Shown piece by piece: positions 4,607 through 20,509 of a stretch of 64,000 nucleotides of DNA. The position numbers were made by a program, and so were the translations under genes. The notes beneath the pieces are model-generated. The model searched no databases. It worked only from the letters and a program-made list of their open reading frames with translations, and had not been told where the DNA came from. Each line of letters starts with the position of its first letter. Positions within the stretch are counted from its first letter, which is position 1. The stretch is from contig CAYWPS010000001.1 of the NCBI GenBank assembly GCA_964460165.1, forward strand, positions 9,384 to 73,383, given 5' to 3'. Source of the stretch: an uncultured Ruminococcus sp. GTDB taxonomy: Bacteria; Bacillota; Clostridia; Oscillospirales; CAG-272.

Positions 4607-5661
4607 TGAGAAATCTTATAGATATCCTCGACTTTTCAACGGAGGAGATAGACTCGCTCATCGAGGTGGCAACGGACATCATAGACGACCCCGACAAGTA
4701 CCGTGACGTGTGTCACGGAAAAATACTCGGAACGCTCTTCTTCGAGCCCTCGACGAGAACCAGACTCAGCTTCACCTCGGCTATGATGTCGCTCGGCGGA
4801 CAGGTGCTCGGCTTTGACAACGCGGCATCGTCGTCCACCGCAAAGGGTGAGACCGTACAGGACACCATACGTATGGTGTCGGCTTATTCGGACATTATCG
4901 CCATGCGTCATCCAAAGGAGGGAGCTCCCATTGCGGCGTCGAGAGTCGCTACCGTGCCCGTAATAAACGCGGGCGACGGCGGTCACTACCATCCAACTCA
5001 GACGCTTACCGACCTTATAACCATCAAGCGCAAATCGGGCAGATTTGATAATCTCACCGTCGGTATATGCGGCGACCTTAAGTACGGAAGAACCGTTCAC
5101 TCGCTCATCGCGGCTATGTCGAGATACGAGAACGTGAAATTCGTGCTTATCGCTCCCGATGAGCTTAAGCTCCCGGACTACGTCAAGGAGGAATTTCTCA
5201 AGTGCTCCGAGTATATCGAAACCGCGGATCTCGAGGGTGCTATCCCATCTCTTGACATTCTCTATATGACGAGGATCCAAGCAGAGAGATTCCACGACCG
5301 TGATGAATACGAGAGGCTCAAGGACAGCTATATACTTGATTTAAGTAAGCTTAAGTTTGCAAAATCCACTCTTTCTATACTTCATCCGCTCCCCAGAGTA
5401 AACGAGATAAGCGTAGACGTTGACGATGATCCGCGCGCTCACTACTTCGAGCAGGCAGCGCTCGGAAGATATATAAGAATGGCGCTTATACTTAAGCTCC
5501 TTGACTCAGAGGGCATCGACGACCGCCGTACCGTAGGTGAGGAGAACGACTCGCTGGAGTGTAAGAACCCCCACTGTCTTTCCATAACCGAAAGAGGCAT
5601 AAAGAAGCTCTTTAAAAACGGAAAGTGCATCTACTGCGACCAGACCGCAGAGAGAAAATAA
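4606..5661 (+). CDS. pyrB: aspartate carbamoyltransferase catalytic chain with a C-terminal PyrI-like zinc domain
   Basis: STRTR, HPTQ and HPLPR motifs in the first ~300 aa. The last ~40 aa read CKNPHC...CIYC, the pattern of the PyrI Zn domain. Confidence 0.9.
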
Positions 5662-5663
5662 AT

Positions 5664-5707
5664 AAAAAACGGAAGGCAAACCGACTGATCAGAGCCTTCC
5701 GTTTTTT
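5664..5707. terminator. bidirectional intrinsic terminator after pyrB
   Basis: ACGGAAGGC (5669-5677) pairs with GCCTTCCGT (5694-5702). The stem is flanked by an A6 run and a T6 run. Confidence 0.8.
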
Positions 5708-5855
5708 ATTTATCGCGATTTATCTTTTTTCGCGTATATCTTATTCTGTTTCGTATTTGCTCAATTCTTTCACTATCGTAGAGTTAAAGCATGTCGGGTA
5801 TATGTACCTATCAACGAGCTCGTCGGGTGAAAGAGCAAGTCCTCACAGTCACACA

Positions 5856-6266
5856 TCATTCACCCTTCTTCTTAGGTCCGCGGCGTTTAGCAGCGGTCTT
5901 GACTTCATTATAGGAGTTCATATAGAGGTTTATCGTGCTTTCAAGGGTTTCTCTGAGCGCCTTTCTCATCGGGTCGGGCATAGAGCGCGAGCGTCTGTAA
6001 AGCTTAAGAAGGTGCAGCTCCTCCTCGGAGAGCTCGGAGGTATCGCGCCTCAGCGGCATATCCATAAGCTCGCCGATATTGACCTTGAACTCCTCGGAAA
6101 GCCGCGGAAGCATCTTCATAAAGGAGGCAGATCTTGCGCGTCTCCAATTGTTGACGGTCTTATCGCCAAGCCCCATCGCGCGCTCAAACGCCGCGTCGCT
6201 CTCAAACTCCGACTCGATCAAAGCAAGTATCCTCGCCCTTATACGCTCTGTATTGTCCTCTCTCAT
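5856..6266 (-). CDS. HTH (XRE-like) transcriptional regulator
   Basis: 136 aa. N-terminal HTH-like segment (ERAMGLGDKTVNNWRR). ATGA overlap with the upstream flavin reductase gene. Confidence 0.6.
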   Translation of the reverse strand: MREDNTERIRARILALIESEFESDAAFERAMGLGDKTVNNWRRARSASFMKMLPRLSEEFKVNIGELMDMPLRRDTSELSEEELHLLKLYRRSRSMPDPMRKALRETLESTINLYMNSYNEVKTAAKRRGPKKKGE

Positions 6267-6985
6267 CCTTTCTTACCCCCTCGCTTAGACTTATTTCCCT
6301 TTCCTCTCGGCGCGTCGAGATAGAAGGGGCGTTTTTTGTTTTCTTCAGCATCGGTGTCTTTCGCCGCGTGTGCGCTCTTTGGCTTGTTTCCGGCGGTAAC
6401 CTTTTTCGTTGCGTCCTTCTTTTCGGAGGGCTTCTTAGTGCTGAAGCCGAAGGTTCCAACCTTGTCACCGAGGGCGAAATACTCACCGTGAGCGTATGCA
6501 AGAAGACCCGCCTTATCAAAGCGTATCTTTCCCTTCTCGTCAATGATCGACTCGTCGCAGGAGACGCTGACGATATCCGCGATAAAGACGTCGTGAGTTC
6601 CCATAGGAATAACCTCAACCACCCTACATTCGAGCGAAAGGGGACACTCGGCTATCGTGGGAACGGATACTTCCTTGCTCTTGAGCTTTGTGAGTCCGCA
6701 CTCCTTAAATTTATCTACCTTTGCGCCGGTATAAATACCCGCGTAGTCCACGACCCTCGCCTGAGAGGCGGTGGTGAGATTGATGACGAACTCACCCGTC
6801 GCCTTAAGCATCTTATAAGAATGTCTCTCGGGTCTCACCGATATGTACGTCCTCGGGGGAATGGTCGATAGTATGCCCGTCCAGCCGATAGTTATGATGT
6901 TCGAGCTTTCCATATCGCCAACCGTCACCATAACGGGCGGCAGAGGAGCGGTCAGGGCTCCCGCCTTAAAACTTTTTCTCGCCAT
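6263..6985 (-). CDS. flavin reductase-like (FMN-binding split barrel) protein with a Lys-rich C-terminal tail
   Basis: 240 aa. The first ~185 aa resemble flavin reductase domain proteins. The last ~55 aa are a K/G/A-rich low-complexity tail. Confidence 0.75.
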   Translation of the reverse strand: MARKSFKAGALTAPLPPVMVTVGDMESSNIITIGWTGILSTIPPRTYISVRPERHSYKMLKATGEFVINLTTASQARVVDYAGIYTGAKVDKFKECGLTKLKSKEVSVPTIAECPLSLECRVVEVIPMGTHDVFIADIVSVSCDESIIDEKGKIRFDKAGLLAYAHGEYFALGDKVGTFGFSTKKPSEKKDATKKVTAGNKPKSAHAAKDTDAEENKKRPFYLDAPRGKGNKSKRGGKKG

Positions 6986-7767
6986 TACTTCTCCTCTTTC
7001 CTTCCGCCCTCAAGCATACCGATCCAGAGCTTCGTCAGTATGCAGTCGGGCACAAGCTTGAAGAGCAGATGCTGAAGCTTGGTGTACCAGTTGGTAACGC
7101 ACATAGCCTTTCCCTTCACCGATGCCTTAACGCACTTTTTAACAACCTTCTCGCAGTTAAGAAGCGGCTTCATCGACTTAGGATGAGTATTACCGTTAGC
7201 GACCGACTTGCCAAGGAACTCGGTCTCTACCCAACCGGGACAGAAGCAGGTCGCTCTGATGCCGTACTTCTTAAGCTCGTAATTAAGCGACTTTGTATAA
7301 TGGAGAACAAACACCTTGCTGGATGAATAAATGTTGAAATAAGGAAGGGGCGTAAAGCACGAGCCGCTGCCGAGCTGGATAATTCTTCCGCCCGGTTCCA
7401 TAAAAGGAACGGTCATGTGCGTAAGAAGCACGAGCGCCTTGGCATTGAGGTCAATCATCCTGATGACCTCGTCCTCGGATATCTCGTCGAACGCACCGAA
7501 GTTGCCGAATCCCGACGCATTGACAAGGAAGCTGACCGACGGCTTCTCCTCCTCGAGAGCCGCGCGCACCTTGTTTACGCCATCCATAGAGGTGAGATCA
7601 GCGCCTATGATCTTAGCCTTTACGCCAAGCTCATCCGCAAGAGCCCGCATTCTTGATTCATTACGGGCTACGAACCAAAACTCATCAATAATACCGAGCT
7701 TGTTAAGCTGGCGCGCAAACTCGCTTCCTATTCCGCCGGACGCACCGGTTATAATTGCAACTGACAT
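6985..7767 (-). CDS. SDR family oxidoreductase
   Basis: TGASGGIG Rossmann motif and YSSSK catalytic motif. 260 aa. Confidence 0.85.
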   Translation of the reverse strand: MSVAIITGASGGIGSEFARQLNKLGIIDEFWFVARNESRMRALADELGVKAKIIGADLTSMDGVNKVRAALEEEKPSVSFLVNASGFGNFGAFDEISEDEVIRMIDLNAKALVLLTHMTVPFMEPGGRIIQLGSGSCFTPLPYFNIYSSSKVFVLHYTKSLNYELKKYGIRATCFCPGWVETEFLGKSVANGNTHPKSMKPLLNCEKVVKKCVKASVKGKAMCVTNWYTKLQHLLFKLVPDCILTKLWIGMLEGGRKEEK

Positions 7768-7785
7768 AGTAATTTCCTTTCAGAG

Positions 7786-8772
7786 TCAAATGTTTTCTTC
7801 TTCGAGCGCGGCGGTGAGTATTCTCTCTATCTCGCCGTACTCCGTTGCCTGATTTATCCTTGCGCGTATTGCCGCGGCACCCCTGAAGGAGTGCAGATAC
7901 GAGGCTATCTGCTTTCTTGCCTCGGGAACAGCCACACGCTCACCCTTGTCCTCGATGGCGAGTCTTAACTGCCACAGAGCCACGTTTACCTTATCCTCAA
8001 GGCTCGGCTGACAATAACTTCCGCCCTCAAGAGCGCATAGTATCTCTTTGAAAATAAACGGGTTACCGACAGCTCCGCGTCCGACGGCTATACCGTCAGC
8101 TCCGGTATATTTAAGCATCGATAGCGCTTCTATACCCGATGTTATGTCTCCGTTGGCTATAACGGGAATATGTACACTGTTTTTTACATTTTTGATAGTT
8201 TCTCTATCTACTGTACCGGCGTACATTTGAGTCTTTGTTCTGCCGTGAACGGTTATAAGAGCCGCGCCGCCGCTTTCTGCCGCCATGGCACATTCGGTGG
8301 CGTTTATATTCCCTTCGTCAATTCCCGTACGGTGCTTTACAGTTACGGGCAGGTCGGTATTATCGCTCACCGCCCTCGTAATTCTGTATATGAGCTCGGG
8401 ATCACGCATAAGAGCCGACCCCTCACCGTTTGAAAATATCTTGTGCACGGGACACCCCATGTTTATATCAATGGCACACGGTGAGGAAAAGCCCTCGCCG
8501 AAATTTCTCGTCGACAGTATCTCTGCAGCGCGAGCCATTATATCCGGCTCATTGCCGAATATCTGAAGCGCGACGGGTCCCTCGTCATGCCTTATGTTCG
8601 CGAGCGAAAAGGTCTTTTTATCCCCGAAGGTCACAGCCTTGGCGCTTATCATCTCGGTCACCGAATACTCGGCTCCCATCTCGTGACATACGCGCCGCAT
8701 CGCCCTGTCGGAAAAGCCCGCCATCGGCGCTAAAAAAATGCCGTGTCTGAGCTCAACGCTTCCTATCTTCAT
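7786..8772 (-). CDS. tRNA-dihydrouridine synthase
   Basis: MKIGSVELRHGIFLAPMAGFSD start and DINMGCP motif. The ATG at 8772 forms an ATGA overlap with the upstream gene stop. The longer track ORF start at 8922 would overlap that gene. Confidence 0.85.
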   Translation of the reverse strand: MKIGSVELRHGIFLAPMAGFSDRAMRRVCHEMGAEYSVTEMISAKAVTFGDKKTFSLANIRHDEGPVALQIFGNEPDIMARAAEILSTRNFGEGFSSPCAIDINMGCPVHKIFSNGEGSALMRDPELIYRITRAVSDNTDLPVTVKHRTGIDEGNINATECAMAAESGGAALITVHGRTKTQMYAGTVDRETIKNVKNSVHIPVIANGDITSGIEALSMLKYTGADGIAVGRGAVGNPFIFKEILCALEGGSYCQPSLEDKVNVALWQLRLAIEDKGERVAVPEARKQIASYLHSFRGAAAIRARINQATEYGEIERILTAALEEENI

Positions 8773-13557: not shown

Positions 13558-16437
13558 ATGTTAAACTTGAAATCGATTAAAAAGGATTACGTTACCTCAT
13601 CCGAGACGGTGCACGCCTTAAAGGGTGTTTCCATCTCCTTCAGAAAAACTGAGTTCGTGTCAATTCTAGGTCCTTCCGGCTGCGGAAAGACAACCTTGCT
13701 TAACATTATAGGCGGTCTTGACCACTACACAGACGGCGACCTGATGATAGGCAGCCGAAGCACGAAGGAATACGGAGACAGAGACTGGGACGTATACAGA
13801 AACCACAGAGTCGGCTTTATCTTCCAGAGCTACAATCTCATCCCCCATCAGACCGTGCTCGGAAACGTCGAGCTCGCCCTTACCATCGCGGGTATAGAAA
13901 AGGAGGAGCGGATCAGAAGAGCCAAGACGGCGCTTGACAGAGTCGGACTCGCAGGACAGTACTATAAGAAGCCAAATCAGCTCTCGGGAGGTCAGTGCCA
14001 GAGAGTCGCTATCGCAAGAGCGCTCGTAAACGATCCCGAGATACTCCTTGCCGACGAGCCCACCGGCGCACTCGACACCGTCACGTCGGTACAGATAATG
14101 GAGCTTATCAAAGAGATCTCCAAGGAAAGACTCGTCGTTATGGTAACGCATAACCCCGAGCTCGCGGAGCAGTACTCCACGAGGATCGTAAGACTTCTCG
14201 ACGGCGAGGTGGTAGAGGACACCAACCCTATGACCGACGATGAGATCGAGACCGAGATAAGAGCCGAGGAGGCTGAAAGACTCGCCGAGGCGGCGGCAAT
14301 TAACGCTCTGCCCGAGCCCGAGAGAAAAAAGAAGATCAAGCAAAACAAAAAGAAACGTGAGAAGGCAAGGATGTCCTTCTTCACCTCCTTTAAGCTTTCG
14401 GCAAGAAACCTTCTTTCCAAAAAAGGCAGAACGGCTATGGTCGGATTCGCAGGATCTATCGGTATCATCGGTATCGCTATGGTTCTCGCCTTCTCCGCGG
14501 GTATCAAGGGCTACGTCGCATCGATGCAGGACGATATGCTCTCGGGCAACCCGATAACCATATCCGAATCAGCATACGACTTTGATATTATCACCGAGAT
14601 CATGAACGATACTCTGACCGACGAGGATACCAAGGAAAAGCACAAGGTGTATATCGACTCCTTGGTGGAATACATCGCTACGATGAGTAAGTTCTCAAAC
14701 TCGTTCTTTTTCAAAAACGAGCTCACCAAGGATTACATAGACTACGTAAAGGCTATGCCGAGCGAATACTACAACGCCATGACGTTAGGCTACGGCATCG
14801 ACCCCACGTACTCGATCTACACCAATTTCACTCATCTTGATGAAAACGGCAACGAGGTCACCTCCCGCATCTCCGTAGCGGCTCTTACGAGCATCTATAC
14901 CTCGGTGCTCGCGGAAACCGAATACAGCGAATACGCAAGCTATATAACCCAGCTCGCGCCCTCGTTCCAGCAAGCACCCAACAATTCCGATTACATAGCC
15001 CAGCAGTACGACGTTTACGGCGAGATCGCAGACGAGTACGACGAGGTAATGCTCGTGCTCTCAAAGAGTCAGGAGGTATCGGATATCCTCCTCGCAAGAC
15101 TTGGAATTTACACGGAGGCTCAGTTCTACAACCTCATATATAAGGTCGGCAGCCAGTCCTCAAAGAGCGAGGATCAGATGACCGAGGAGGAGAAGAAAAA
15201 TCTCGAGGAAATGAAGGCTCTTTACAACCCCGAGCTTGACGTCGATTATTTCGATTACGACTACCTTCTCTCCGAGGATCTTACGTTTACCTGGTATCCA
15301 AACGACTCTATATACACGGCAAACGCAGGTATAACGCTTCCCGACGGCACGGTCATCAACGCCAGCCCCTTCTCTTACGCTTATGACGCCAAGGATGTAA
15401 GCGGCGGCGGAATAGATCTGCGCATCACGGGTATACTTATCGCCAATGAGAATACCAGCTTCGGCTGTCTTTCCTCGGGTATTTATTACACCGAGGCGTT
15501 GACAGATCTCATTCTTGAAGAAAACATGGACAGCGAGATCGTTAACTACATCAACGAGAACGGACCTATCACCTCGATGAAATACGGCGGCGCGCCCATA
15601 GGTGTGCATTACAGCTACGATTACAGACACATCAAGCCCCTCACGCTGGAGGACGGCAGCACCGAATGGATAGGCAATGACACCGCTTACGTAGGAGAAG
15701 CCATCAACGTAACCGATATGATGAGCTCCGCGGGAGGCTCCGGCGACAGCTCAGAGAGCGGCTCGCAGAGCAGCGGTATGGACACCGCGACGCTCATGCA
15801 GATGAAGACGGTATCGCTGAGAATGCTCGGCGGTAACGACGTAGCGAACACAGTATCCATCTATCCGCTGAGCTTCGACTCCAAGAATCTCGTCACCGAG
15901 TATCTGGATAAGTGGAACGGCGAGGATGCTATAAGCGTCGGAGACAAGACGATCGACGCGCAGACTCGATCAGACGTGAAATACACCGATACCCTCGAGA
16001 TGATAATCAATATGATCAACACCATGATAGACGTTATTTCCTACGCTCTTATCGCGTTTACCTCGATATCTCTCGTTGTATCCACGGTCATGATCGGTAT
16101 TATCACCTACGTATCCGTGGTTGAAAGGATCAAGGAGATCGGCGTTATCCGCTCGCTCGGAGGACGCAAGAAGGACGTAAGCCATCTCTTCAACGCCGAA
16201 ACATTCATTATCGGCTCGCTAGCGGGTCTGTTCGGCGTGGGTGTGACCTACTTCATCTCGTTTATAGTAAACCTGATACTCAAGCCGCTTATCGGTTACT
16301 CGAGCATTGCGGCTTTGCCGATAGGTCAGGCAGTGCTTCTCGTTGCGCTCAGCATCGCCTTGACGCTCATCTCGGGACTTATCCCCGCGTCAAGCGCCGC
16401 AAAGAAGGACCCCGTCGTAGCGCTCAGAACCGAATAA
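13558..16437 (+). CDS. fused ABC transporter ATP-binding protein/permease (MacB/FtsX type) with a large extracytoplasmic domain
   Basis: Walker A GPSGCGKTT, signature LSGGQ, Walker B LLADEPT. One TM segment, a ~500 aa insert, then a C-terminal FtsX-like three-TM block. Confidence 0.85.
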   Translation: MLNLKSIKKDYVTSSETVHALKGVSISFRKTEFVSILGPSGCGKTTLLNIIGGLDHYTDGDLMIGSRSTKEYGDRDWDVYRNHRVGFIFQSYNLIPHQTVLGNVELALTIAGIEKEERIRRAKTALDRVGLAGQYYKKPNQLSGGQCQRVAIARALVNDPEILLADEPTGALDTVTSVQIMELIKEISKERLVVMVTHNPELAEQYSTRIVRLLDGEVVEDTNPMTDDEIETEIRAEEAERLAEAAAINALPEPERKKKIKQNKKKREKARMSFFTSFKLSARNLLSKKGRTAMVGFAGSIGIIGIAMVLAFSAGIKGYVASMQDDMLSGNPITISESAYDFDIITEIMNDTLTDEDTKEKHKVYIDSLVEYIATMSKFSNSFFFKNELTKDYIDYVKAMPSEYYNAMTLGYGIDPTYSIYTNFTHLDENGNEVTSRISVAALTSIYTSVLAETEYSEYASYITQLAPSFQQAPNNSDYIAQQYDVYGEIADEYDEVMLVLSKSQEVSDILLARLGIYTEAQFYNLIYKVGSQSSKSEDQMTEEEKKNLEEMKALYNPELDVDYFDYDYLLSEDLTFTWYPNDSIYTANAGITLPDGTVINASPFSYAYDAKDVSGGGIDLRITGILIANENTSFGCLSSGIYYTEALTDLILEENMDSEIVNYINENGPITSMKYGGAPIGVHYSYDYRHIKPLTLEDGSTEWIGNDTAYVGEAINVTDMMSSAGGSGDSSESGSQSSGMDTATLMQMKTVSLRMLGGNDVANTVSIYPLSFDSKNLVTEYLDKWNGEDAISVGDKTIDAQTRSDVKYTDTLEMIINMINTMIDVISYALIAFTSISLVVSTVMIGIITYVSVVERIKEIGVIRSLGGRKKDVSHLFNAETFIIGSLAGLFGVGVTYFISFIVNLILKPLIGYSSIAALPIGQAVLLVALSIALTLISGLIPASSAAKKDPVVALRTE

Positions 16438-16454: not shown

Positions 16455-16492
16455 CCCCTACCCGCAATTTTCAACACGGGTAGGGGGTTTTA
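16455..16492 (+). terminator. intrinsic terminator after the ABC gene
   Basis: CCCCTACCCG (16455-16464) pairs with CGGGTAGGGG (16477-16486), followed by a T run. Confidence 0.75.
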
Positions 16493-16503
16493 TAATTATA
16501 CGA

Positions 16504-16532
16504 TTGACTTTTTCGCGCTCAGATGATATACT
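16504..16532 (+). promoter_or_regulatory. sigma-A type promoter for the GTPase-NYN gene
   Basis: TTGACT (16504-16509), 17-nt spacer, TGATATACT extended -10 (hexamer at 16527-16532). Confidence 0.6.
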
Positions 16533-16564
16533 GTTCTTAAAGCTTTACGAAAGGAGAAGTGAGT

Positions 16565-19156
16565 ATGAAGAATATCGTAATGGGCATTATCGCTCACGTC
16601 GACGCCGGCAAAACGACGCTTTCAGAGGCACTGCTCTACACGAGCGGCGCGATAAGAGAGCTCGGCAGAGTAGACAGACGCGACGCGCATCTGGACACCT
16701 ATTCGCTCGAAAGAGAGCGCGGCATCACCATATTCTCAAAGCAGACCGTGCTCGACTTCGGTGACACGCACATATCGCTTATCGACACGCCCGGTCACGT
16801 AGACTTCTCCTGCGAAACGGAACGCTCACTGTCGGTACAGGACTACTGTATACTGGTTATAAGCGCAACCGACGGCATTAAGCCGCATACAAGGACTCTC
16901 TGGCAGCTGCTCGCCGCAAGGCGTATTCCCACCTTTATCTTCGTAAATAAAACTGATATCTCGGACAGGACGAGAGACGAGCTCTGCGCCGAGCTTCGCA
17001 CCGTGCTGTCGGATAGGTGCGTAAGCTTTACGCGTCCCGACACATACGAGTTCTACGACGAGGTCGCGAGCAAGGACGAGTCACTCATCGAGGAGTTTCT
17101 GGAGACGGAGACGCTGTCAGACGAAAGCATTGCCTCGGCAATAAGAAAAAGACTCGTATTCCCCTGTTTCTTCGGCTCCGCCTTAAAGCTAAAAGGAGTT
17201 GAGGAGCTTCTCGCGGGAATAGATCGATTTGTGCGTGAAACGCCCTACCCCGTGTCGCTTTTCGGCGCTAAGGCGTACAAGATAATGCGCGATCAGAACG
17301 GCAGGAGAATGACACTGGCGAAAATCACGGGCGGAACTCTCCGTCCCAAGACCATGATAGAATACAGGACCGGAAGCGGCGATACCGCCATCGAGAAGGT
17401 GGAGGAGATAAGGCTTCTTACCCACGATAGATCCAGACCGCTCAAGGAAGCCGAGCGAGGCACTCTGTGCGCCATAATCGGACCCATGGGCACCATGGCA
17501 GGCACGGGCATGGGAATTGAGGCTAATGACACCGCTATGCTGTCACCCGTGTTAGATTACCGAATGATCTTACCAAAGGACGTCAGCCCCTACGACGCGT
17601 ATCTGCGGCTCGCGTCTCTCTCGGAGGAGGACCCCTCGCTGGGTATCAGCTGGGAGACCGGCGCGAAGGAGATCCGCGTCAGCCTTATGGGAGAGATACA
17701 GCTCGAGGTGCTCAAGCGGATGATACTCGAGCGATTCGGCATGGCGATCGAATTTGACGAGGGAAGCATACTCTACCGCGAGACCGTGGAGGATGTGGTG
17801 ATAGGATCGGGACATTTCGAGCCGTTAAGACACTACGCCGAGACGCACGTGAGAATCGAGCCCCTGCCGGAAGGATCGGGTACGGTATCAGCAAGCGACT
17901 GCTCCGCCGACATCCTTTCTTCAAATTGGCAAAGACTCGTGATGACGCACATAGACGAGCGCGTTCACCGCGGAGTTCTCATCGGCGCTCCCCTGACCGA
18001 CGTTAAGATAACGCTTATAGCGGGCAAGGCGCATCTCAAGCACACCGAGGGCGGAGATTTCCGCCAGGCGACCTATCGCGCGATAAGGCAAGGACTTATG
18101 AAGGCGAGATCGGTCATACTCGAGCCCACATTTGACTTCCGCATAGAAGTACCGACCGAATATCTTGGCAGAGTCATGACCGACGTGACCAATATGCACG
18201 GAACGTCAAAGGCGCCGGAGATATACGAGAACGTGTCCGTGCTCGAGGGCAGCTGCCCCGTAGCTACTATGCGCTCCTACGCAAGCGAGCTACGAGCCTT
18301 CACCAGAGGGGATGGCAAGATAACCATGAACGTCGGTGCCTACGTCCCCGCACATAATCAAGACGAGATAATCGCAGGATCGGGATACGATCCCATGCTC
18401 GACGAGAAAAATCCCTCAAGCTCGGTCTTCTGCAAAGCCGGCGCGGGATATGCCGTACCATGGGACGAGGCGGATGCTCTTATGCACGTACGCACCGACG
18501 GCGGAAACGGCGATGCGAGCGAGGGTACGTCGGACGTGCCCGCGAGAGCAAAAGCCGTAAAATACGGAGGCACTGCCGAGGAGGATAAGGAGCTGATGCG
18601 TATCTTTGAGGCGACCTACGGCAAGATCAAGCCGAGAAGGGTAGCCGAGAGAAAGGAAAACAAGGCTCCCGAGGAAGCTCCGCGCAAAAGAGGTAAGGCG
18701 TACAAAAATCTTGAGGAGCACGTCATCCTTGACGGATACAACGTCATCTTCGCTTGGGACGAGCTGAGCAAGACGGCACAGATCGATCTCTCGCTCGCCA
18801 GAGATATTCTGACGAGAATAATGTGCAGCTACACCGCCTTCCGAAAATGCGAAGCAACCATCGTATTTGATGCATACAAACGACACGGCGGTGAAGGAAG
18901 TGAGGAAAAGTGCGGTAACGTGACCGTGGTGTACACCAAGGAGGCAGAGACCGCCGATGCGTATATCGAGAGGGTAAGCAAGGCTCTCGTCAGCGACTAT
19001 ACCGTCAGAGTCGTAACCTCCGACCTCGAGCAGCAATACGTCGTGCTTGGAAACGGGGCGCTCCGAGTCAGCGCCAAGGAATTCCGCCGTGAGATCGAAA
19101 ATACGACGAGCGAAATAAATGAAGCTGTCGATAAAATGAAATATAAGTCAAAATAA
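16565..19156 (+). CDS. TetM/EF-G-like translational GTPase fused to a C-terminal YacP/Rae1-like NYN ribonuclease domain
   Basis: G1 AHVDAGKTT, G3 DTPGH, G4 NKTD. The C-terminal ~146 aa read LDGYN / VFDAY / ETADAYIE / VTSDLEQ / GALRVSAKEF. The ATG at 16565 lies 7 nt after GGAGA; a GTG at 16559 is an alternative start. Confidence 0.85.
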   Translation: MKNIVMGIIAHVDAGKTTLSEALLYTSGAIRELGRVDRRDAHLDTYSLERERGITIFSKQTVLDFGDTHISLIDTPGHVDFSCETERSLSVQDYCILVISATDGIKPHTRTLWQLLAARRIPTFIFVNKTDISDRTRDELCAELRTVLSDRCVSFTRPDTYEFYDEVASKDESLIEEFLETETLSDESIASAIRKRLVFPCFFGSALKLKGVEELLAGIDRFVRETPYPVSLFGAKAYKIMRDQNGRRMTLAKITGGTLRPKTMIEYRTGSGDTAIEKVEEIRLLTHDRSRPLKEAERGTLCAIIGPMGTMAGTGMGIEANDTAMLSPVLDYRMILPKDVSPYDAYLRLASLSEEDPSLGISWETGAKEIRVSLMGEIQLEVLKRMILERFGMAIEFDEGSILYRETVEDVVIGSGHFEPLRHYAETHVRIEPLPEGSGTVSASDCSADILSSNWQRLVMTHIDERVHRGVLIGAPLTDVKITLIAGKAHLKHTEGGDFRQATYRAIRQGLMKARSVILEPTFDFRIEVPTEYLGRVMTDVTNMHGTSKAPEIYENVSVLEGSCPVATMRSYASELRAFTRGDGKITMNVGAYVPAHNQDEIIAGSGYDPMLDEKNPSSSVFCKAGAGYAVPWDEADALMHVRTDGGNGDASEGTSDVPARAKAVKYGGTAEEDKELMRIFEATYGKIKPRRVAERKENKAPEEAPRKRGKAYKNLEEHVILDGYNVIFAWDELSKTAQIDLSLARDILTRIMCSYTAFRKCEATIVFDAYKRHGGEGSEEKCGNVTVVYTKEAETADAYIERVSKALVSDYTVRVVTSDLEQQYVVLGNGALRVSAKEFRREIENTTSEINEAVDKMKYKSK

Positions 19157-19171
19157 AAAACAGAGCAAGAA

Positions 19172-19362
19172 TAGCGTGATACTCTTAACGGAGCATTCAC
19201 GCTAAACGATGTTTGCCCTTGCGGGCAAGTGATGTTCACTTCGTGAATGATGTTGTGCCTTCGGCACAGTGCGCAAACATCACATCACTGCGAGCATTTG
19301 CGAGCAACATCATTATGCGTAGCATAACATCACTTTTGCGTCAGCAAAAACATCACTAACAG
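19172..19362. repeat. foldback array: GTGATGTT motifs (x3-4), then AACATCAC motifs (x4), separated by short unrelated hairpins
   Basis: GATGTT at 19208, 19231 and 19249. AACATC at 19276, 19306, 19326 and 19349. Hairpins at 19172-19204, 19214-19227, 19237-19245, 19255-19267, 19314-19326 and 19334-19349. Confidence 0.6.
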
Positions 19363-19418
19363 AAAAAAGAGCAAACATTCAAGATTTTTCGTCTTGCGTG
19401 TTTTGCTCTTTCTGTTTG
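19362..19418. terminator. bidirectional terminator between convergent genes
   Basis: AGAGCAAACA (19368-19377) pairs with TGTTTTGCTCT (19399-19409), with an inner CAAGA/TCTTG helix. A6 lies upstream and a T-rich tract downstream. Confidence 0.65.
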
Positions 19419-19558
19419 TAATAGGGGTTTGGGCTTAGCCCATACTTGCATTTGACCGGTCAAATGCGATGCTTGCACTTTTGGTAAATTGTGAATTCTC
19501 CGCTAAGGATATCACCCTATAGAATGAATCTCCTTTTTACTCTTACTCTTTTTGTGTT

Positions 19559-20509
19559 TTATAGCGATAATGTAAAGAACGTTTTACTTTCAGTGCGTCT
19601 TATCGGCTCCATATACTTGGAGGTCATTTTAATTGATTTTTCATTTTCATTCAGAATTTCAGCCGTGAGAGTTGATAATCCTATGCGTCCGGCAAGCTCT
19701 ATCAACGCCCTCGTAGCACGAGAGCCGATGCCTCGCGAGTGGCGATCCCTCATGACCCTGACCGCTATGGACGCCTTGCCGCGATAATCAAAGCCGTATA
19801 TCGTCGCCTCGCCGGCAAGCTCGCCGCCCTCACGCACGGCAAGGGTAATGGCTACGCCGTCAGCAAGCTCGCGCCTTACAACCTCGAGATAGAAATCCGC
19901 GTCGCCCTCGGGATTATCACTGTCCACGTCGTAACCCCAATATTTGTTGAGATCACGGTCGCGGCAAAGCTCCGCGTATCTCTCCCTGTCTGCATCGGAG
20001 AGCTCGTCAAGCGTAATGCCGTCAAGCTCTATCGAGGGTATTTCGTCGAGCATATCACACTCATTATTGACCTTAACGAAGAAAGCGTCCTCATCATCCT
20101 CATAGGCGTAGGCGTCTACGTGCGGAAAGACCGAGCATAAAAACTCAAGCTCGTCCCTCGGAACGTCGGTAATTATCAGCGGCACCATCTCGCGCGCGGA
20201 ATACGCGGCAAGACTGATACACGCCCCCTCGGCATCCGCTCCGTCGGTCAGCATAAAGGGCAGCGGAAACACGTACCTTTCTCCGTCGTATACGCGGGCG
20301 TATAGCACCTCGTCGCAGTATGCGAGCGCAAGCGACATATTCTCGCCTATGGATTCCGCAAGACCGAGGATTATCTCAAGCGCGTCGCCCGAAAGCCCGT
20401 CCGGGATGGATAATATCTCTTTTATTCTTTTCTCGTTACAAACTCCTTGAGCTTCTGCCAGGTCCTCGCCGAGAATTTCTTGAATTTTTCGAAAACGGAT
20501 ATCAGCCAC
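19559..20509 (-). CDS. GNAT family N-acetyltransferase with an N-terminal domain of unknown function
   Basis: The C-terminal ~150 aa have a GNAT-like core (RHSRGIGSRATRALIELA). The start is uncertain because the ORF overlaps the upstream histidine kinase gene by 88 nt. Confidence 0.65.
   Translation of the reverse strand: MADIRFRKIQEILGEDLAEAQGVCNEKRIKEILSIPDGLSGDALEIILGLAESIGENMSLALAYCDEVLYARVYDGERYVFPLPFMLTDGADAEGACISLAAYSAREMVPLIITDVPRDELEFLCSVFPHVDAYAYEDDEDAFFVKVNNECDMLDEIPSIELDGITLDELSDADRERYAELCRDRDLNKYWGYDVDSDNPEGDADFYLEVVRRELADGVAITLAVREGGELAGEATIYGFDYRGKASIAVRVMRDRHSRGIGSRATRALIELAGRIGLSTLTAEILNENEKSIKMTSKYMEPIRRTESKTFFTLSL

Follow-up and report, generated by a model that had tools for sequence, protein, structure and literature searches.

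The gene at positions 16565-19156 of a 64-kb stretch of contig CAYWPS010000001.1, from an uncultured Ruminococcus sp. (we refer to the whole stretch as the window), encodes in one chain a translational GTPase of the EF-G type and a YacP/Rae1-type NYN endoribonuclease. We hold, with moderate confidence, that it is best explained as belonging to a large, vertically maintained Clostridial family in which a distinct EF-G/TetM-like GTPase carries Rae1, acting as a collision or no-go decay nuclease. The window protein is a member of a published fusion family, and its architecture is not new: the "Tet-NYN_YacP" fusion in Clostridia was described by Atkinson 2015, BMC Genomics 16:78 (PMC4342817, Additional file 8) and by Matelska et al. 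2017, NAR 45:6995 (PMC5499597). The value of the present analysis lies in the link to new Rae1 biology, and not in the discovery of an architecture known since 2015.

The reading frame is unbroken for 863 sense codons on the forward strand, from the ATG at 16565 to the stop codon at 19154-19156. An independent Logan assembly of run SRR14307642 encodes an identical 863-residue protein. In a collection of 5.8 billion proteins, from which the 120 best matches were taken, the GTPase domains and PF05991 lie in a single chain in all 120 (62–100% identity, from many samples), and fusions of 820–1000 residues make up 140 of the 150 best 50%-identity cluster representatives (37–56% identical). More than 270 homologues share the architecture of the window protein, and the single open reading frame (ORF) is also present in complete genomes of cultured strains. 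Because the independent assembly is identical and the homologues show the same single-chain architecture, a misassembly or missed stop is excluded, and it is practically ruled out that the fusion is an artefact in which an assembly or sequencing error has merged two neighbouring genes, a reading for which we found no supporting point. The uninterrupted frame given in the preliminary description of this DNA is confirmed by the ORF check, the Logan assembly and the homologues, and the check for misassembly or a missed stop that it had proposed came out negative. Every motif that it quoted is present where it was placed, as follows (in residues): AHVDAGKTT at 10–18, DTPGH at 74–78, NKTD at 128–131, VILDGYNVIFAW at 720–731 (nt 18722-18757), IVFDAY at 766–771, ETAD at 795–798, VVTSD at 816–820 and GALRVSAKEF at 831–840. 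An alternative GTG start at 16559, which would lengthen the ORF, was dismissed as too near the ribosome-binding site.

The nuclease half is assigned with high significance. Residues 720–860 match the Pfam model NYN_YacP (PF05991) with E = 7.7e-45 and 153.3 bits, against a gathering cutoff of 24.6, and the C-terminal ~145 residues match the sequence of B. subtilis YacP/Rae1 in its crystal structures (5mq8/5mq9, E = 2e-22), which bears out the resemblance to YacP (Rae1) first noted in the preliminary description. The four acidic motifs noted at that stage are intact, with D723, D769, D798 and D820 aligning with the catalytic residues D7, D53, D81 and D104 of B. subtilis Rae1; the four aspartates are kept in 139–141 of 141 family members. 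The NYN domain is 41% identical to B. subtilis Rae1 (C. difficile stand-alone Rae1, 42%). By these sequence measures the domain is an orthologue-grade Rae1, predicted to be catalytically competent. It shares with B. subtilis Rae1 the NYN_YacP fold family and all four catalytic aspartates, and its chemistry and ribosome-dependent action are presumably the same. The setting of the two differs, in that B. subtilis Rae1 is a free 170-residue protein that is encoded between rlmB and sigH and binds ribosomes transiently, whereas the window domain is covalently tethered to a translational GTPase, is encoded elsewhere and lacks a C-terminal tail. The window protein thus departs from the canonical stand-alone form, a single domain of ~170 residues in a cysS-mrnC-rlmB-yacP-sigH cluster. 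The tail of stand-alone Rae1 (loci L087:4977-5504 and L096:224-736) is ~25–30 residues long with the pattern ..L.E..L...E..R.G.., and a similar one (NYLFD..E....LEEIRLG) is kept by some fusion members; it is absent from the end of the window protein (19100-19153).

The GTPase half is an EF-G-like five-domain body, predicted to be competent. The features that define the EF-G superfamily, namely the G1–G4 motifs, the catalytic His and domains II–V, are all present, and G1 (AHVDAGKT), G3 (DTPGH, with catalytic His78) and G4 (NKTD) are intact in the window protein and invariant across 89 family members. Profile search returned the GTPase and NYN_YacP domain calls as initially proposed, and domain II is annotated as PF22042 or PF03144 in some homologues. 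Like TetM, the protein has a short G' insertion, and most of this region as found in B. subtilis EF-G has no counterpart in the alignment. Domain IV bears at its tip two family-specific, near-invariant motifs, GHFEPLRHYAE (residues 416–426) and HLKHTEGGDFRQ (residues 490–501), at positions that align with GGRGQFGH and YHDVDS in EF-G and with PPNPFWAS and YYSPVS in TetM. An AlphaFold2 (AF2) model had a mean predicted local distance difference test score (pLDDT) of 79.8, with confident EF-G-like and NYN domains and disordered segments between them. Foldseek with the whole model matched ribosome-bound EF-G and TetM structures (E ~1e-42 to 1e-49) and re-identified EF-G only. Because the G motifs are invariant and the nuclease aspartates are kept across a deep family, both enzymatic activities are under purifying selection.

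Between the two enzymes, the preliminary description had placed a ~70-residue linker. The whole stretch from EFG_C to NYN is longer, at ~118 residues, and what survives of that claim is a 76-residue tether, which follows a folded extension of ~42 residues. The extension is predicted by AF2 to be ordered as helix, beta-hairpin and helix, and carries the motif YDPxxDxxNPxxSVFCxxGAGyxVPWxE....MH with invariant residues Y608, D613, N616, F622, C623, G626, G628, V631, W633 and H641; no Pfam model matches residues 600–641. The tether consists of two low-complexity, poorly conserved spacers rich in K, E, R, S and A around a conserved amphipathic helix, with pLDDT below 50 at residues 646–657 and 688–714. 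The tether is flexible and of constrained length: among 141 family members it ranges from 42 to 144 residues (median 87), and the motif ELxxIFxRTYG recurs. Coordinates of all features are collected in Table 1.

Table 1. Features of the fusion gene and of the sequence immediately upstream, as positions in the window.
Feature	Position	Strand	Basis
Hairpin and T-run, probably terminating the upstream ABC-FtsX gene	16455..16491	+	CCCCTACCCG / CGGGTAGGGG then TTTT
Sigma-70-type promoter-like site (TTGACT, 17 nt, TATACT, TG extended -10)	16504..16532	+	10/12 consensus matches
Ribosome-binding site AAAGGAG	16550..16556	+	Read from sequence; GGAG 8 nt before ATG
Complete coding sequence	16565..19156	+	863 aa + stop; open frame, independent assembly
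G domain, residues 4-223	16574..17233	+	Pfam GTP_EFTU E=4.7e-49
Domain II beta-barrel, ~residues 234-317	17264..17515	+	AF2 secondary structure and pLDDT
EF-G domain III, residues 349-397	17609..17755	+	Pfam EFG_III E=8.5e-8
EF-G domain IV, residues 402-514	17768..18106	+	Pfam EFG_IV
EF-G domain V, residues 518-599	18116..18361	+	Pfam EFG_C E=5.5e-17
GTPase C-terminal extension, residues 600-641	18362..18487	+	Conservation; pLDDT ~82-86
Tether, residues 642-717 (76 aa)	18488..18715	+	pLDDT, alignment of family members
Tether helix EDKELMRIFEATYGKI, residues 673-688	18581-18628	+	Family conservation; AF2 helix 671-685
YacP/Rae1-type NYN endoribonuclease domain, residues 718-863	18716..19153	+	Pfam, PDB sequence match

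The sequences listed by Atkinson 2015 come from R. albus 7 (YP_004106010), E. rectale, E. eligens, B. proteoclasticus, C. cellulolyticum, C. lentocellum, L. phytofermentans, C. thermocellum and D. hafniense (PMC4342817). These published fusions share GHFEPLRHYAE, AHLKHTEGGDFRQA, SVFCxxGAG..VPW, ELMAIFERTYG and LLVDGYNIIFAW with the window protein; the domain order, domain IV motifs, extension and linker helix agree with the published sequences and the 140 cluster representatives. Nothing essential separates the window protein from them, the difference being its source, an uncultured Clostridia lineage known from a metagenome-assembled genome. The expectation that no characterised example existed holds in that we found none in the searchable literature, although the fusion itself was published in 2015 and 2017. 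Neither of the two earlier discussions (PMC4342817; PMC5499597) makes a link to ribosome-dependent mRNA decay.

When one genome of each GTDB species was scanned, at least 575 related stretches were returned, and the best 80 of these, which were inspected, are all full-length at 46–87% identity. The carriers among the best 80 are Oscillospiraceae, Acutalibacteraceae, Ruminococcus-like organisms and Lachnospiraceae, and the closest GTDB species among the matches listed are 86–87% identical to the window protein. Among cultured bacteria the fusion is carried by Coprococcus comes, Faecalicatena contorta, Oscillibacter ruminantium, Merdimmobilis hominis and Dysosmobacter, to which Monoglobus pectinilyticus and Agathobacter rectalis can be added; among published sequences, Ruminococcus albus, A. 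thermocellus and Desulfitobacterium also carry the fusion.

The GTPase subfamily also has members with neither tether nor nuclease, among them chromosomal proteins of 640–660 residues across Lactobacillaceae; an example is LSL_RS10690 (WP_164920261) of L. salivarius pMP118. In the Oscillospiraceae, Subdoligranulum variabile (OY725836.1, 1768-3744) has a 658-residue subfamily ORF that stops straight after the extension, with no tether or NYN domain, and because of this member both the fused and the NYN-less architectures fall within Clostridia. The Lactobacillaceae and S. variabile proteins are 42–44% identical to the window protein over residues 1–643, with the same domain IV motifs and the same extension (found in both L. 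salivarius and S. variabile), and differ in ending directly past it. Since such NYN-less members exist, the GTPase with its extension is an autonomous unit and the nuclease an add-on. In L. salivarius pMP118 (5402-7920), the NYN-less GTPase gene lies divergently beside an rpsN (S14) paralogue and a very small protein annotated as "putative metal homeostasis protein." This arrangement is a hint that the gene may be connected with alternative-ribosome or metal-stress regulation in L. salivarius; no such connection was seen in the Companilactobacillus or Levilactobacillus loci (L091–L093).

The gene order rlmB-yacP-sigH is found in both C. difficile and B. subtilis. No cysS, mrnC, rlmB or nusG lies near the fusion gene in 81 loci, and no second NYN gene was found within 10 kb in any of them or elsewhere in the 64-kb window. 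PLSDB contains Monoglobus records, pieces of chromosome deposited as plasmids, in which the fusion alone matches Rae1; together with the rlmB loci described next, this suggests that the fusion may be the Rae1 of these organisms, replacing the stand-alone form. In Vescimonas, and in Monoglobus, which carries the fusion, the genes after rlmB are unrelated ones, without yacP and sigH, so that the classical cysS-mrnC-rlmB-yacP-sigH cluster is dissolved. Among Lactobacillaceae, a separate NYN-domain gene lies beside rlmB in Latilactobacillus curvatus, the one other record examined, and the gene neighbourhoods of the NYN-less GTPases contain no adjoining Rae1. An NYN-less GTPase together with a separate NYN gene fits a Rosetta-stone relation between the GTPase and Rae1.

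What Rae1 does on the ribosome has recently been revised. The preliminary description took it as established that Rae1 acts in the ribosomal A site, a view now outdated: the earlier A-site model was based on docking and has been replaced, and A-site cleavage was withdrawn by the same laboratory in 2025 (PMC12407103). The cut made by free Rae1 is now placed behind the stalled ribosome, in the stretch of mRNA that separates its tail from the trailing ribosome (PMC12407103). Rae1 turns collided ribosomes into tmRNA substrates (Tetreault et al., 2026 preprint; PMC13622287). Its binding to ribosomes is transient, with the result that there is no ribosome-bound structure, and how collided ribosomes are recognised is an explicitly open question (PMC13622287). 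The terms GTPase, TetM and Clostridi- are absent from both papers (PMC12407103; PMC13622287), and the fusion is accordingly unmentioned there.

Against this background, the most likely function of the fusion would be that of a ribosome-docked Rae1 cutting mRNA on stalled or collided ribosomes. In its GTP form the protein would dock at the factor-binding site, like all EF-G-family factors, and the domain IV tip and the extension would read the state of the decoding region and select stalled or translocation-blocked ribosomes, for instance the trailing ribosome of a collision. During the GTPase dwell, the tethered NYN domain would cut the mRNA at or beside that ribosome, most likely, by analogy with free Rae1, between the stalled ribosome and the one behind. 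GTP hydrolysis would then free the factor, and the truncated mRNA would pass the ribosomes to trans-translation. Docking on the trailing ribosome with a cut between ribosomes is the most economical model, given the Rae1 cut site and the location of the factor site on the side where the mRNA enters; the trailing-ribosome step is a guess made by analogy. We infer that the protein binds ribosomes, which ribosome state it recognises, that mRNA is its substrate and where it cuts. The original proposal, that the GTPase delivers the nuclease to the A site, stands to the extent that delivery to the factor site would still be the best reading, while the A site as destination is no longer favored after the 2025 revision.

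Functional analogies exist for each half of this model. SmrB of E. coli and Cue2 of yeast are endonucleases that cut mRNA at stalled or collided ribosomes, but their SMR fold is unrelated to NYN. Hbs1-Dom34 and eRF3-eRF1 are pairs in which a GTPase brings an effector to the ribosome; the effector of Hbs1-Dom34 is a separate, non-nucleolytic protein, unlike the covalent fusion described here. We found no characterised counterpart in which a translational GTPase is covalently fused to a nuclease.

Several points weigh against a collision nuclease. TetM binds non-rotated ribosomes with an empty A site and EF-G binds rotated pre-translocation ribosomes, and this subfamily could prefer either state. 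From the NYN-less members it follows that the GTPase also acts by itself, in a role that may be unrelated to mRNA cleavage. The operon link of yacP with mrnC and rlmB makes rRNA a conceivable substrate. Instead of being "the" Rae1 of its hosts, the fusion protein could also be a paralogue with a specialised role, and we found no experimental study of any family member in the searchable literature.

The rRNA point can be developed into a distinct explanation, in which the protein would be an rRNA- or tRNA-directed factor acting on defective, immature or idle ribosomes in quality control, turnover or maturation. A nuclease tethered at the factor site would be surrounded by rRNA, stand-alone yacP lies in the cysS-mrnC-rlmB operon together with rRNA-processing and -modifying genes, and Atkinson 2015 had suggested an "rRNA RNase ability" (PMC4342817). 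However, the experimentally defined substrates of Rae1 are mRNAs only (PMC12407103; PMC13622287), and the fusion gene is linked to rRNA-processing genes in none of the 81 loci; we consider this explanation rather doubtful.

If the nuclease instead worked in the A site, the GTPase would insert the NYN domain into a vacant A site and the A-site codon would be cut in a RelE-like manner. The geometry is in part inviting: domain IV of EF-G-family proteins and the C-terminus of TetM reach the decoding center, the tether begins right past the extension that follows domain V, and the shortest tethers in the family (42 residues) favor a nearby target. Yet the protein's own domain IV would probably fill the 30S A site and leave little room for a 145-residue NYN domain, and the docking-based model that had put Rae1 there has been replaced (PMC12407103). 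We judge A-site cleavage by the fusion to be unlikely.

NCBI annotation of homologues as "TetM/TetW/TetO/TetS family" implies yet another function, that of a tetracycline-type ribosomal protection protein with an accessory RNase, and a "novel mechanism of resistance" was likewise raised by Atkinson 2015 (PMC4342817). In its favor, tet_protect (NF012153) is the best-scoring NCBIfam model and the short G' region is TetM-like. The score, 387.4 bits, is nevertheless below the cutoff of 775 and falls far under every Tet-type exception model (tet_protect_M_W, 272 bits vs. 1100); EF-G models fail as well (TIGR00484, 281 bits vs. 659; PRK12740, 304 vs. 583). In alignments with Tet(M), Tet(O) and EF-G sequences from annotated plasmid records, identity over residues 1–645 is 31% to TetM/TetO and 28% to B. 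subtilis EF-G, compared to 38–49% within the protein's own subfamily. Loop III of domain IV dislodges tetracycline in TetM (as summarised in PMC4342817), and in the fusion family a conserved AHLKHTEGG stands in place of the YYSPVS of TetM/TetO, while the short basic C-terminal helix of TetM/TetO is replaced by the unrelated 42-residue extension. Compared with tet(M), no leader peptide of that type is present upstream of the fusion gene. Nor is there an association with conjugative elements: among 72,556 plasmid records there are two full-length matches, both non-mobilizable (252 kb and 518 kb), and the broad chromosomal distribution looks vertical. What remains in common with Tet(M)/Tet(O) is the five-domain EF-G-like body and the reduced G' subdomain; the tetracycline-displacing loop and helix, the leader peptide and the mobile-element context are all missing. 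On these comparisons the GTPase is a separate subfamily and not a TetM-type tetracycline protection protein, and the resistance function is improbable. The phrase "TetM/EF-G-like" in the preliminary description was right about the EF-G-like five-domain body and imprecise in its TetM part; its further judgement that this is not a plain tetracycline-protection protein agrees with the cutoffs, loop III and the C-terminal helix.

Names within the subfamily are inconsistent, ranging from "TetM/TetW/TetO/TetS family tetracycline resistance protein" and "Tetracycline resistance protein TetM from transposon Tn916" to "elongation factor G" and "GTP-binding protein." Tet names for its members, with or without the NYN domain, are not justified by the curated cutoffs. 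Such labels on proteins of abundant gut Clostridia and of Lactobacillaceae amount to a widespread annotation error, which could inflate resistome counts.

An anti-phage or toxin-like abortive system, in which translation would be shut down by RNA cutting on ribosomes, is very improbable: a ribosome-tethered nuclease is potentially toxic, and Tetreault et al. speculate that Rae1 could act on invader mRNAs (PMC13622287), but PADLOC matched no defence families, no immunity, antitoxin or sensor gene is conserved as a neighbour, there is no mobile or defence-island context, and the few matches in phage records are partial and host-fragment-like.

Beyond a collision nuclease, a wider role can be imagined for the GTPase itself. 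The subfamily, with or without the nuclease, might be a dedicated sensor of translocation-blocked or collided ribosomes, with free GTPase and free Rae1 cooperating in Lactobacillaceae and others; we regard this extension as doubtful. If it were true, the subfamily would be an unrecognised translational-GTPase arm of bacterial collision rescue, alongside Rae1 and trans-translation, and a GTPase-dead or GDPNP-trapped fusion would give the first stable ribosome–Rae1 complex for structure determination. The natural and widespread tie between Rae1 and a GTPase in any case suggests that Rae1 works from the side of the ribosome where factors bind and mRNA enters, and the fusion offers a complex that could be trapped with GDPNP or by mutation of His78 for biochemistry and cryo-EM.

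The fusion gene is chromosomal and lies in a variable context, as is typical of a housekeeping or stress gene passed on vertically rather than of a resistance cassette or defence island. A mobile origin was considered and rejected, the full-length plasmid matches being large and non-mobilizable and the phage-record matches partial. A conserved operon partner was likewise rejected, as clustering of the ORFs in the 81 loci recovered synteny among close relatives only. In the window, the codon composition of the fusion gene resembles that of neighbouring genes, which encode Dus, a PHP-domain protein, an MFS transporter, an M3-family oligopeptidase (PepF-like), an ABC-FtsX fusion, a GNAT acetyltransferase, a two-component system, and an amidohydrolase with a glucosamine-6-phosphate isomerase-family protein (NagA/NagB-like). 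The gene immediately upstream (13558-16437, forward strand) encodes the ABC-FtsX protein, a MacB-like single chain of 959 residues in which an ABC ATPase is fused to an FtsX-type permease.

The 127-nt gap upstream of the fusion gene is made up of the terminator-like hairpin, the promoter-like site and a 5' untranslated region of ~30 nt (Table 1). The hairpin is likely to isolate the fusion gene transcriptionally. The promoter, assigned by consensus match only, is partly conserved upstream of the orthologues at loci L003 and L006. No Rfam match, and hence no regulatory RNA or attenuator, was found upstream of the gene. The downstream gap of ~400 nt (19157-19560) is filled with dense imperfect inverted repeats built from CATCAC/GATGTT words, a region that is not conserved 3' of the orthologues at loci L002, L003 and L006. 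Within it, the Gut-1 RNA motif (RF01706) gives a sub-threshold match of 36.2 bits, against a gathering cutoff of 50 (E = 3.4e-4), with the best match at 19204-19276 on the forward strand and a second at 19302-19358 on the reverse strand.

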